From the NCBI GenBank assembly GCA_964187785.1, contig OZ076409.1, positions 10,356,001-10,420,000 of the forward strand: a stretch of 64,000 nt of DNA, in the 5' to 3' direction. Of this stretch, positions 30,301-34,724 are shown one piece after another; the first letter of the stretch is position 1; each line of letters begins with the position of its first letter. This DNA comes from Amphiscolops sp. MND2022. Lineage: Eukaryota. The notes beneath the pieces are model-generated. The model ran no database searches, was not told the origin of the DNA, and saw only the letters and a program-made list of their open reading frames with translations. The position numbers were made by a program, and so were the translations under genes.

Positions 30301-30421
30301 TGAGAGAGAGAGAGAAAACACTGTATTATTGTATAGGGATAGCTGGTGCCAGTATACAATAAGTGTAGATTGATTTATGCTGAAGCATAAATGATTTTTT
30401 CAAGTTTTACAGGGCGATAAA

Positions 30422-33400
30422 TCAGGTGAAGCGGAAATCACGCCAAGTATGAGATGTATGGATAGGCATACGACTACTTTCCAAAGTTAGATGCCTTCTG
30501 AGACGACTTTTGAATGTGTGTAGACTTATACTAGTGTCTCTTAAGTACAACGGTAGTGAGTTCCACTTCGAAGAAGAATGATGAAAGAAAGAAAAAAGAG
30601 ATACATGACTTCCCACGTAAATTATCTGATTAGTGCGATCGTTCCACCTGAAAATCGCCGTAGGTAACTTTAAAGAGCTCTGGAAGGCTTTTTTAGTATT
30701 TTTGAGATATTGGAACAGAAATACAAGAGATTTCAAATCGATAAGTTGCTTTATTCCAATTATTTTCTTTTTTTCTCTCAGATCACTCGACGATTTAAAG
30801 CTCGAACGGAAGTAGACAGATTTTAATGCCCAGTTCATCTGTTTCTCAAGGGAAAGTAGCAAAGGAGGGGATATTTGAGTGAAAAAAATCGCAGAGTATT
30901 CGAAATGACTGATTATTAGCGCGTGGAAAAGCATGACTAAGACTGTGGTCGGAAATTTGTGTTGTATAGATTCAATAGTTTTTATTCCAACTGCCATGTT
31001 TTTCAGAACCTTTTTTACTTGGGTTTGGAAAGTCAGGTGTTGATCTAACGTTGTTCCAAGATATTTACATTCACATTTCTTTTTGACAACTGAGGAGCAC
31101 ACGACAACTGTTTCGGAGTCTAGCTGTCTCTTGTCTTTTTTTTCGGGAAAAAGTTATGAATTCTGTTTTACTACCATTCAAATTTAGTCGATGGGACTTA
31201 AAGTAACTTTCAAGTTTCAAAATATTTGTTTGCAAACATTGCAAAGCAATGTCAGGGTCCTGGTGACTACAAAAAAGCAAGCAATCATCGGCGTACTGGA
31301 TAATGCGAGCATCCTCCGTTATCTGTCCAGTCAGGTCATTGACATATAGGTTAAAGAGCAGTGGTCCTAAAATAGTGCCCTGGGGAACGCCTTGTTTCAG
31401 TTCTATCCAATCCGATTTGACACCGTTCAATGAAACCTGCTGCAGTCTATCACTGAGGAAACTTTTTATAAAGTTGATGGCCGAAAATGAGAAACCAAGA
31501 GACTTGAGTTTAGACAAAAGGATTTCATGTGAAAGTGAGTCAAAGGCTTTTGATAAATCCAGCAAGACTGCATGAACTATCTTTCCATCCTGAATTTCCT
31601 GTTGAACCGATTCGGTGAAAAACAAAACAGCATCTTCTACTGATACTTTTTTCCTAAAACCAAATTGGAGTGGAGCGAGATTTTTTTCTTCAATGTAAGC
31701 TGTAATTTGCCTATGAATACATTTTTCAAGGATTTTGGAGAACGTTGTTGTAATCGAGATGGGACGATAATTTTTGGGATCTAGAATGTCATCTTTTTTG
31801 AAGATGGGGGTTATAGTCGCTCTCTTTAACATCGTAGGAAAGACACTTTCATAAATGCACTCATTCAATATGAATGTTAAGTGAGAAGTCAAAATTTGCT
31901 TTCCATCAATTATAGCCCAAGCGGGCACCTTACAAGGACCGGTAGGTTTGTTCGGTTTCAACTCATTGATGATATCGTAACAATCTTTCACTGTGATTGG
32001 ACTAAAAGAGAACGAAGAATCACCGGGAAGGAAGGATGGAACTTCATCATTGATATTACCAAAATATTGACCAAGGTTCGAAAATATCAGGTTGAAATGA
32101 TCGGCCATTTCCTTGTCATCAACTATCATTTTACCGAATGAATTTCTCACTGCTGCAAGATTGACCGACTTTTTATTTTGCCCTCGGGCGGAATTTATGA
32201 AATTCCATCTTTCCTTAGCGGTGCACAGAGAAGAAAAACAGCTCCAGGCAAATTTCTCTTGCTTTTCTTTTAGTACCTTAGAAAGTTGATTTCTAAGTTT
32301 TGAGTACGTGGACCAAGTTTGAGCAGAGGTATTATTACAGTATTCGTGGTAAGCTGCTTGGCGTGCCTGGGTTAAGGTTTTGCACTCGCTGTCATACCAG
32401 GATTCTTTGAAAAGTTTAGGGGTCCTTTTTCGGAGAAAAATTTTTTTGACGGGTGCATGCTTTTCCACAACACTAGCTAACATATAGACAAACAGATTGA
32501 ACATATCAGTAGCATTCGAACAATTATAGATTCTAAACCATGGGATATTTGATAGTGACAGACAGAAAGCGTCTTTTTGGTATGTACTCAAATCGAACTT
32601 TTGCAAGATTGTGCACTTCTGTTTTTCAGCGAAAACGTTTGTGAAAACTACTGAGCCAAAATGATCTGTTTTAAAAGGACTATTGAAAACAAAGCATTTA
32701 CCGTCTAAGATGTTTTCAGCTATTATATAGTCAATGTGTGTTTTTGTAGTTTTACAGACACGCGTAGGTAAATTTGGGCTAGCTACGGAGAACCCATATG
32801 GTAATATGACAGTTTCTAGGTTTTCCCGTTCAAGTGGGGTGAGGTAGTCTAAATTGTAATCGCCCATCATTGTGATGTTTGCAGTTTCGCACGTGGAGTT
32901 GTCTATATTTGTTTCTAATTGTTCAAGAAAATCATTTTGAAATTGTTTCATAGGATTATAAGTTACGTTAATCAACATGGTTTTCTTGCAATGTTTTGAG
33001 AAATCATTCCTACATTCTACCCAGATGGAGTCGAACTTAGTTTTATCAAAAAGGTTGAGATCTTTTCGTTCCCTCGGAGCAAGTTTCAAAGGTACAAAGA
33101 GCATTACACCACCACCCTTTTTTTTCGAAATTGCAGAACTTCGGTCACATCTGAAAAGCTCGTGGGTGTTTGAAGCTACATTCCAAAAAACCATGTCATC
33201 ACTAGGAGTTAACCAACTTTCTGAGATACCCACAATTGCGTTCGTTCCCATGTCGTTCACAAAAGATTTCAACTGAGTATGTTTTTTAGATACATCTTGA
33301 AAGTTCATGTGGACTATGCGTAAATTTTGTTTATTTTTGTCGGACAACTTGGAAAAATTATCATAGCTAATTTCAGGACCTGGATTTTGCTCAATATCTC

Positions 33401-33473
33401 CGCATAATTTCAAAAGGGCTCTAGCGAATGTTAGAAAATCGAATGAACTAAATGCATCAGATATCCCAAGGTT
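30422..33473 (-). CDS. LINE ORF2: 2A-like peptide + APE endonuclease + reverse transcriptase (one frameshift near 31140)
   Basis: LCGDIEQNPGP; APE motifs ISESWL, GGGV, MGDYN, PTR, IDYI, TDH; RT motifs NYRPIS, QFGFR, DLSKAFD, GVPQGTILGPLLF, YADD, KYLG. The frame switches in an A-run between ORFs 33413-31071 and 31102-30422. Confidence 0.92.
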
Positions 33474-34199
33474 TCATATAAATTTTTTAACACTTTTACA
33501 TGCACTGGCAAGGAGCTCTTTATCCCATTTTTGCAGTTTATAAAGGTTTTCAAATACGAGTTTTTCATTATCTTGCATAAACACAATTATTTTTTCATTA
33601 ACAGTATGCACTCTAGCAACATCATCCCGTTTCCTCAATTCACGAGTTATTTTAGCTCTGATTGGGGTAAGATCATCATTCACAAAAATGTTGGTATTTT
33701 TGAGATTGCGCTTGTTTTTCATTAGCTGATGTTTCGTGTCACGTCTCACAAATTTGGCTATCAGAGGTTTGGGGCCAGACCCTCCGCCAGGTAAACGGTG
33801 GCAGGTACTTACGTCATTGGCAGTAATTTGGACACCGGCCTTTTCAGCAACACTAACCACCTTCGCATAAACGTCCTCGCCTGGCTCTTCTTGCACTCCG
33901 AAAATGCGCACATTCTCCCTTCGCCCATACTGCTCTATGCTGTCAGCCTCGATGATTGGCGCCAGGTCCTCCGTGGTACACCGACTGGCTTTGTTCAGCT
34001 CCTCAAATGCACAAAATCCACACAGGAAAGGCCTCGCGAAGAAATTCTTGGGAATTTGTGTGGGTACCCATACATTTGTCCAGATGACACATCCATTCCC
34101 ATCCACACCAGGTCCAGTGCATTCAATCAGATGGTTGCTACCTTCTTCCTTTTTGCCCTGATTGATGGAGGATGTTGATGGGTTTCGCGCAGACGGCAT
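33474..34199 (-). CDS. LINE ORF1 protein (Cys-rich N-terminus, L1/CR1-type RRM and CTD)
   Basis: Motifs EQYGRRENVRIFGV, CHRL, PLIAKF and IFVNDDLT are typical of CR1/L2-group ORF1p. Confidence 0.85.
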   Translation of the reverse strand: MPSARNPSTSSINQGKKEEGSNHLIECTGPGVDGNGCVIWTNVWVPTQIPKNFFARPFLCGFCAFEELNKASRCTTEDLAPIIEADSIEQYGRRENVRIFGVQEEPGEDVYAKVVSVAEKAGVQITANDVSTCHRLPGGGSGPKPLIAKFVRRDTKHQLMKNKRNLKNTNIFVNDDLTPIRAKITRELRKRDDVARVHTVNEKIIVFMQDNEKLVFENLYKLQKWDKELLASACKSVKKFI

Positions 34200-34724
34200 T
34201 TCGTCGGGCCTTCTCTTTTATCAGTTAATCTGAAAAGACTTATTAAACAGCCGCAGCTATTTAATAAGTTTATCACAACAATTAGGCTGCTTGTTGTTCT
34301 GCTTGTTGAACAGTTTTTTCGAAGTCCCATTGCCTAGCCTGTCCCGTAGGAATATACCGTGTTTGGTTGCTCCTAAGTAGCTTCTGACGTTAACGGCTGG
34401 CACGTGCAGGGGTTATCTTGGTTGGCGTTTTTTTTCCTTCCCACATCTGATTCTTTCCCCTGGTTTGTTTTTTTTTGTGAACAGCTTGTTAATGCTTGTT
34501 GGTTGTTTGGTTGTATTTCTTTCTGCATGACTGTGTTCAGATCCTCCATTCGTCCTACTTTCAATTACCATTCATGGCTTTCGCGCACCATTCTGTTCCA
34601 AAACATTCTATTTCGTCTTTGTCACAGTTCTATTTTTTCCGCCCGATGACGTTGTACATTTTGTCTTTCAGTTTGACATATCTTGTAATTACCTGGTTTT
34701 GTTAATTATTTCCAACTGCTACTA

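Follow-up and report, generated by a model that had tools for sequence, protein, structure and literature searches.

Several non-long-terminal-repeat retrotransposons of the apurinic/apyrimidinic endonuclease (APE) type carry a 2A-like peptide, GD(V/I)ExNPGP, directly before the endonuclease domain (Odon et al. 2013, PMC3708506; Luke et al. 2013, PMC3894237; here and below, published work is cited from those parts of each text that were available). In these elements the 2A lies ~40 to 80 amino acids (aa) into open reading frame 2 (ORF2), and most have no ORF1. Predicted proteins of Cordylochernes scorpioides likewise have a 2A-like peptide between the ORF1 protein (ORF1p) and ORF2 protein (ORF2p) domains, each as a single protein, with no mention of a stop codon or readthrough in the available text (bioRxiv 10.64898/2026.06.17.732966). 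Here we describe a long interspersed nuclear element (LINE), a member of what we call family A, on the minus strand of a 64,000-nucleotide (nt) stretch of Amphiscolops sp. MND2022 (assembly GCA_964187785.1, contig OZ076409.1, positions 10,356,001 to 10,420,000; "the window", in which all positions below are numbered). Unlike the published 2A elements, it has an ORF1, in frame with ORF2, and its 2A lies past a single stop codon with no AUG; such a stop-then-2A junction is not described in the available text of PMC3708506 and PMC3894237. From comparison of sequences, the best explanation for how ORF2p is made appears to be readthrough of the UGA followed by 2A skipping, a reading that we hold to be moderately probable.

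ORF1 (241 aa; 33474..34199) ends in KKFI and a single in-frame TGA (33476-33474), and the same frame runs on as NLGISDAFSSFDFLTFARALLKLCGDIEQNPG/P (33473-33375) into the domains for APE and reverse transcriptase (RT). This 33-codon stretch lacks an ATG in both the translation and the alignment of copies, and its end is the 2A motif GDIEQNPG/P (33401-33375). ORF2 (30422..33473) comprises 2A, APE, and RT and is 1017 codons long where intact; in the window copy it is broken near 31135 by a frameshift private to that copy. Minus-strand translation thus bears out the earlier note on this DNA, which had the frame continuing without a Met through the 2A into APE; the peptide that it gave for the junction was also read correctly, but its AFSSF does not hold for most copies, which have AFCSF. 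The earliest Met in the ORF2 frame is codon 56 (33308-33306), past the 2A; aligned with related ORF2s, this codon is a variable hydrophobic site (M/L/V) within the first conserved APE motif, and it is downstream of residues conserved among 2A-bearing families. The ATG overlapping the stop opens only MKPWDI*, six codons in the -1 frame, as had also been noted. The RT matches RVT_1 (E 3e-37), and the APE-like region N-terminal to it is assigned by motif alignment alone, Pfam and PDB sequence searches having returned no APE match. For ORF1, a PHD-like N-terminus and an RRM-type C-terminal part are leads only: feature matches (Atlas) to PHD, Baculo_FP, and Transposase_22 are all below 0.9, and sequence searches gave nothing above the Pfam cut-off and no PDB match. 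The 2A motif itself is not a chance occurrence, because two degenerate patterns have 202 and 214 genomic matches and the reversed patterns have 0; that 2A-like peptides occur at the ORF2 N-terminus of APE-type LINEs, as previously stated for this DNA, agrees with PMC3708506 and PMC3894237.

The element belongs to a young family of dispersed repeats, with 40 scored copies over many contigs; 30 loci were fetched, of which 29 could be mapped. TGA is present in 29/29 of these and an in-frame ATG before the 2A in 0/29, with private spacer deletions in two copies and a second stop in two tandem copies. Among 20 full-length copies, five (L067-L071) are intact in both ORFs, with a single TGA between them and 1017 codons in ORF2. 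A hand count of the first 100 of 108 matches to a junction motif gave TGA in 41/42 A-type and 33/37 copies of a second family, B, although the pattern detects only TRR at the stop position. The three copies with TGG there are decayed and fall on separate tree branches. One decayed copy on its own branch beside family B (L248, G000:C9:49938900-49943200; 75% identity) reads TGG, and decay cannot be told apart from a fused lineage. The alignment of other copies proposed in the earlier note therefore finds the TGA, the frame, and the missing ATG all kept, here and in sister families, and the family has neither a consensus ATG in frame nor a sense codon at this position. A copy-specific mutation, or an ATG start lost through a missing base, is ruled out by the 29/29 count. 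With stop, frame, and lack of ATG conserved, ORF2p would have to be reached by a noncanonical route. A fused ORF1-ORF2 protein was also considered. Only one match was longer, and in this chimera ORF1 forms the C-terminal part; of 7809 representative proteins, the best 150 are all 734 aa or shorter, a weak negative, as gene callers stop at TGA. The short pattern TGA-N6-GGGATATCTGA is also matched by a third class of sequence (12 copies read). This is an unrelated repeat lacking an upstream ORF1, which shows that the motif by itself can occur by chance. That repeat (L121-L132) is multicopy and has a Cys/His-rich ORF of at most 329 codons.

Family B is 77% identical to A in ORF1 and 68% in ORF2 and has the same lone in-frame TGA, a spacer of 22 codons (24 in A), and the 2A motif; in one copy (L081) both ORFs are intact. 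A/B ORF2 identity by codon position is 0.74/0.85/0.44. Across A and B, third-position identity is 0.44-0.45, near saturation, compared with 0.74-0.90 at positions 1 and 2, a pattern showing that purifying selection has acted on both ORFs while the stop was present, so that ORF2p has been made throughout. Codon differences in the 2A core are synonymous or conservative. A third family, D, is represented by three decayed database proteins with a 25-codon in-frame spacer, GIS[DE], and a 2A remnant; two D-type protein queries did not find it at high identity in the Amphiscolops genome. The lone-stop architecture is thus conserved in three families: the spacer is 24 codons long in A, 22 in B, and 25 in D and always in frame, its indels lie between GIS[DE] and the 2A core, and GIS[DE] keeps a constant distance from the stop and not from the 2A. 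The D proteins have W, W, and G at the stop position. Translating locus L028 with table 4 gives exactly P0002, an A-type protein that also has W at this site, and we therefore infer that the D residues are gene-caller readings of TGA. The full combination of lone conserved stop, continuous frame, and absence of AUG holds for A and for one of the three D proteins, B having downstream Mets.

ORF1 of the A type also occurs without a 2A, in families C and F of the Amphiscolops genome and in E, found on one metagenome contig (L181). ORF2 in these is in the -1 frame with a 16-nt overlap, and C and E have no usable AUG ahead of the APE domain. E has the canonical heptamer A_AAU_UUU two codons before the stop. 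Judging from the frame of ORF2, C, E, and F probably express it by -1 frameshifting. Next to the stop, A and E have an AUG in the wrong frame and C has one that is blocked by a stop (15/16 distinct copies); such AUGs would compete with reinitiation and not with elongation recoding. Other 2A-bearing LINE families mostly have an ATG, which may stand in any frame and anywhere between 1 nt ahead of the ORF1 stop and ~70 nt past it, with a leader of 60-97 residues; three of their ORF1s were tested, giving one match, to GDSL esterase, below the Pfam cut-off. The genome has at least eight further 2A-bearing LINE-like families (L031-L060, L218-L237); in most of them the 2A is preceded by an ATG and a leader that is hydrophobic and signal-like, and in L108-L110 a region of 200-350 residues surrounds the 2A. 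Three 2A motifs also occur within 800 nt at G000:C3:75775492-75776261, two of them 120 nt apart, a spacing that is not LINE-like.

A candidate stimulator of recoding lies immediately past the stop. In A and B, 14 nt starting 6 nt after it (GGGAUAUCUGAUGC in the window, 33454..33467) are complementary to the loop (30349-30336) of the terminal hairpin (30318..30366) of the element's 3' untranslated region (3'UTR), 3.1 kb away. Twelve of the 14 positions could pair, the partner is at the same place in the loop in both families, and two pairs are changed on both sides; an older A copy carries a base pair that is missing in young A copies. When the junction window was ranked against other windows for pairing with the element's own 3'UTR, it came 4/188 in A, 2/180 in B, and 1/177 in C, and of 1000 shuffled UTRs 0, 1, and 0, respectively, did as well. 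C was tested after the idea arose from A and B; its junction has a different sequence and reaches -26.9 kcal/mol with its own 3'UTR. The helix shared by C and F ranks first of 21 conserved helices (-25 kcal/mol), with the junction run among the six longest exact C/F matches in 5/7 F copies and a UTR motif in 3/7, and by visual comparison the first C/F UTR motif is exactly complementary to the E arm. In six ATG-initiated 2A copies the stop window ranks only 23-157 of ~200, so the pairing is absent there. The distance from the UGA to the predicted helix is 6 nt in A and B; in C the helix starts 4-6 nt past the UUU of the putative slip site, two codons before the stop. This would place it near the entrance of the ribosome while the recoded codon is being decoded.

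We suggest that low-level readthrough of the conserved UGA continues the ORF1 frame into the ATG-less ORF2, that the segment just past the stop pairs with the 3'UTR loop and may stimulate readthrough by delaying termination, and that the 2A skip would then free the APE-RT from ORF1p. Families C, E, and F would use the same layout with a -1 frameshift in place of readthrough. The architecture, its conservation in three families, the purifying selection on ORF2, and the complementarity are read from the sequences; formation of the helix, the termination delay, the decoding of the stop, and skipping by the family A 2A are steps that we infer. Readthrough followed by 2A release is favored by the geometry of the helix together with the 3'UTR-loop contacts known from plant viruses, and given readthrough the job of the 2A is clear, that of taking ORF1p off the enzyme.

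Several observations weigh against this reading. The stop contexts, UGA-AAC in A and UGA-GAC in B, are not of the leaky types, which have C after the stop, CUA/CGG, or CARYYA. A purine after the stop favors termination, A and B having A or G, and known readthrough stimulators start at least 8 nt past the stop, compared with 6 here (PMC13517186); many LINE 2As bearing the motif skip weakly or not at all (PMC3708506). No local stem-loop is predicted after the stop by pseudoknot-free folding (z +1.05 for A, +0.04 and -0.70 for B). The A/B helix was found post hoc and is of modest energy (-14.6/-17.5); an automated search that listed 49 conserved helices missed it, probably owing to a gap in the alignment, and hand scoring would put it at about the fourth place, below a background helix likewise carrying two double changes, so that for the A/B pair alone it is no stronger than the best background helices. 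The 11-nt A/B identity at the junction is likewise unexceptional among 41 exact runs of at least 9 nt, and the arm has a second conserved partner, inside ORF2 in A/B (32541..32554, rank 4/49 among helices conserved in both families, of uncertain significance) and inside ORF1 in C/F. Furthermore, an ATG-type copy, L237 (G000:C4:42210100-42215600), has a -27 kcal/mol pairing, both ends of it seen in this one copy only, between the ORF2 leader 70 nt past the stop and the start of the 3'UTR, and therefore such pairing is not confined to elongation recoding. Among the related families, in B an in-frame Met occurs at spacer codon 19 and another two codons past the skip site, with conserved 2A-core residues upstream of both; D is known solely from its three decayed proteins, which are visible because they are in frame; C and F have the noncanonical slippery heptamer A_CAU_UUU at the site of the canonical one in E; and F has an AUG 52 nt upstream from which its -1 frame is open.

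The strongest competitor to UGA readthrough is a termination-reinitiation that needs no AUG and takes place near the ORF1 stop, the mode proposed for mammalian L1, and non-AUG reinitiation had indeed been allowed alongside readthrough in the earlier note; of the two, readthrough with 2A skipping is now the better supported, through the conserved layout and the new candidate stimulator, and reinitiation is a rival that we consider possible, if rather doubtful. Ribosomes would resume in the ORF2 frame from a near-cognate codon, the AUA at codon 4 being the most plausible, the 2A would trim the N-terminus, and the long-range helix would act as does the downstream structure of SART1. L1 ORF2 translation is described as AUG-independent (PMC11485995, PMC5009743), the caliciviral form of reinitiation tolerates non-AUG codons, and SART1 requires its downstream structure (PMC5972666). 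The AUA is kept as GGG-AUA-U in A and B, with Ile in D, although it sits within the predicted helix, and in E the ORF2 frame has no near-cognate codon until ~57 nt past the stop. The purine after the stop would suit reinitiation, as would the pairing of the ORF2 leader with the UTR in the ATG-type copy. Known cases prefer a nearby AUG (PMC5972666), yet the nearest AUGs in A and E are out of frame, and the in-frame AUG beside the stop that marks calicivirus-type reinitiation was not found at the A, B, C, or E junctions. A, B, C, and E carry AUGGGAU, resembling motif 1 of the termination upstream ribosomal binding site (TURBS), 52-55 nt ahead of the stop, but its UGGGA (-51 to -54 in the four families) is dictated by conserved Trp-Asp codons and so is uninformative on TURBS. 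In calicivirus-type TURBS the UGGGA is 40-90 nt ahead of the stop and has its complement in 18S helix 26; the one 18S-like copy found has no UCCCA in what we take to be helix 26. Nor has either A or B fixed a further in-frame stop in the spacer ahead of the 2A.

Other explanations dispense with regulated recoding or with the stop. The pairing could be real and serve RNA folding, packaging, or reverse transcription, ORF2p arising from basal UGA leakiness with few molecules being enough; the partner is within the 3'-terminal hairpin, the kind of element that LINE RTs recognize, the stop context is weak with no local structure, and there are the second conserved partners in ORF2 (A/B) and ORF1 (C/F). 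We think this improbable, given that both sequence groups have the arm at the ORF1/ORF2 boundary, that its place differs by about two codons between the reading modes, and that the six ATG-type copies have none at their stop. Less probable still, a cis-spliced or internally trans-spliced RNA might bypass the stop, in a host that trans-splices and for an element whose RNA is trans-spliced at its 5' end (see below), with pyrimidine-rich AG sites at the ORF1 stop in C and E. The spliced leader has no AUG, however, no acceptor before the 2A is common to A and B, and ORF1 has no donor-like site shared at homologous positions; the stop junction is kept in 19/19 listed A-type 2A matches, and the leader is joined inside the junction in 0/10 further copies, which ORF2-only RNAs should have left. 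The least credible of these possibilities, to which we attach hardly any weight, is that the stop is a disabling mutation in elements mobilized in trans, or a sense codon in a host that decodes UGA as Trp, Cys, or Sec. ORF2 has been under purifying selection in A as well as in B, which speaks against disablement. A sense codon would account for the database proteins with W or G at the stop, yet the W of P0002 is a table-4 reading of the L028 TGA and an 800-codon stretch of ORF2 is free of TGA, which rules out reassignment of the host code; no selenocysteine insertion sequence (SECIS) family was among the four weak Rfam matches (E up to 5) in the 3'UTR.

At its 5' end the element begins with a copy of a spliced leader (34257..34287), matching the acoel trans-splicing leader printed in PMC9911081, which points to a host that is likely an acoel, and flanks diverge between copies just 5' of it. 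The leader stands just before ORF1 in all four families (window copy; L081, L093, L181), and only ~60 nt separate it from the ORF1 ATG. Within this short segment is a trans-splice acceptor, TTTTCAG (34230..34238), and at L069, L074, and two places on C1 the leader is joined directly to the AG of this internal site; element RNA is therefore trans-spliced and the leader copied into new insertions. Genome-wide the leader pattern has 589 matches, many followed by recurring repeat starts, and a cluster of spliced-leader RNA genes, with the leader followed by a GTAAG donor, is at G000:C1:16.2-16.6 Mb. These LINEs may rely on host transcription and trans-splicing and not on an internal promoter. The 3' end is a (CT)n tail (30304..30314).

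An RT tree of local families only (17 of 22 rows kept, five dropped for short coverage) nests A and B among the ATG-initiated 2A families, and a clade of A+B+C+F is rejected (approximately unbiased test, p-AU 3e-5). The A ORF1 is 48-50% identical to those of C and E and has no match in the ATG-initiated families. A and B therefore look like recombinants, with ORF1 and the junction logic from the C/E/F side and the 2A-ORF2 and tail from the ATG-2A side, and the same is probably true of D.

Three further RNA features were observed. A conserved ORF1 segment ~305 nt before the stop in L093, and in F copies L200, L201, and L209, is the second predicted partner of the C/F arm and is possibly a translation-dependent switch. 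A 13/14-pair helix at the 3' end of ORF2 (30556-30569 with 30428-30441, minus strand), identical in A and B and built from two of their longest shared nucleotide runs, is likely an RNA element. The longest exact A/B run, 30 nt, is ~168-198 nt past the stop (~33280-33310, minus strand), at the start of the APE region.

How LINE ORF2 is translated, how its dose is kept low, and how it is tied to its own RNA are still open questions (PMC3894237, PMC11485995). Mammalian L1 and silkworm SART1 likewise have bicistronic RNAs, with ORF2 translated without a strict need for AUG in L1 and with the aid of a downstream RNA structure in SART1; unlike in family A, an AUG opens ORF2 in both (after a 63-nt spacer, or as UAAUG) and there is no 2A, and 3'UTR pairing is not reported in the available text of PMC5972666, PMC11485995, and PMC5009743. 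Gammaretroviral gag-pol also has a lone in-frame stop between structural and enzymatic ORFs and a G-rich structure shortly downstream, although there it is a local pseudoknot after an 8-nt spacer, and release is by protease and not by a 2A skip (PMC13517186). In the titles and displayed text of the papers that our searches listed we found no description of readthrough with 2A, of a stop-then-2A junction, or of junction-to-3'UTR pairing in a LINE (Repbase and Dfam being outside the search); each part is known, and their combination in a LINE appears to be new. Surveys of 2A based on proteins miss AUG-less leaders such as these. The families offer a compact test system, with intact copies, sisters in frame 0 and in the -1 frame, ATG-initiated relatives, and named base pairs.

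The closest parallel is with the tombusvirids and luteovirids, in which contact between a proximal and a distal readthrough element (PRTE-DRTE) accompanies readthrough in tomato bushy stunt, turnip crinkle, and tobacco necrosis D viruses (TBSV, TCV, TNV-D), and -1 frameshifting occurs in barley yellow dwarf, red clover necrotic mosaic, and pea enation mosaic 2 viruses (BYDV, RCNMV, PEMV2; PMC5893793). As predicted for our families, a segment just 3' of the recoding site pairs with a hairpin loop in the 3'UTR, over 3.5-4 kb; related genera use either readthrough or -1 frameshifting, as do A/B and C/E/F by our reading; and the distal element doubles as a replication signal (PMC5893793). The tombusvirids differ in being plant RNA viruses and not retrotransposons, with no 2A following, and in having as proximal element a bulge in a local stem-loop, of which none is predicted in A/B; their contact has been tested by mutagenesis, whereas that in the LINEs is predicted from sequence, strong in C/F, modest in A/B, and absent at the six ATG-type stops. 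If readthrough under such a contact is correct, an animal retrotransposon would stack stop readthrough and then StopGo under a 3-kb RNA contact, using a strategy that in the literature searched is otherwise found only in plant RNA viruses. A more speculative extension, which we put forward tentatively and think on balance unlikely, is that this end-to-end contact gates ORF2p synthesis: only RNAs with the 3' hairpin would recode (by readthrough and 2A in A/B/D, by -1 frameshifting in C/E/F), and the first ORF2p to bind the hairpin would break the contact and halt synthesis. Such a gate would be a built-in counter enforcing full length, low dose, and cis preference, convergent with the replication-translation switches of tombusviruses.

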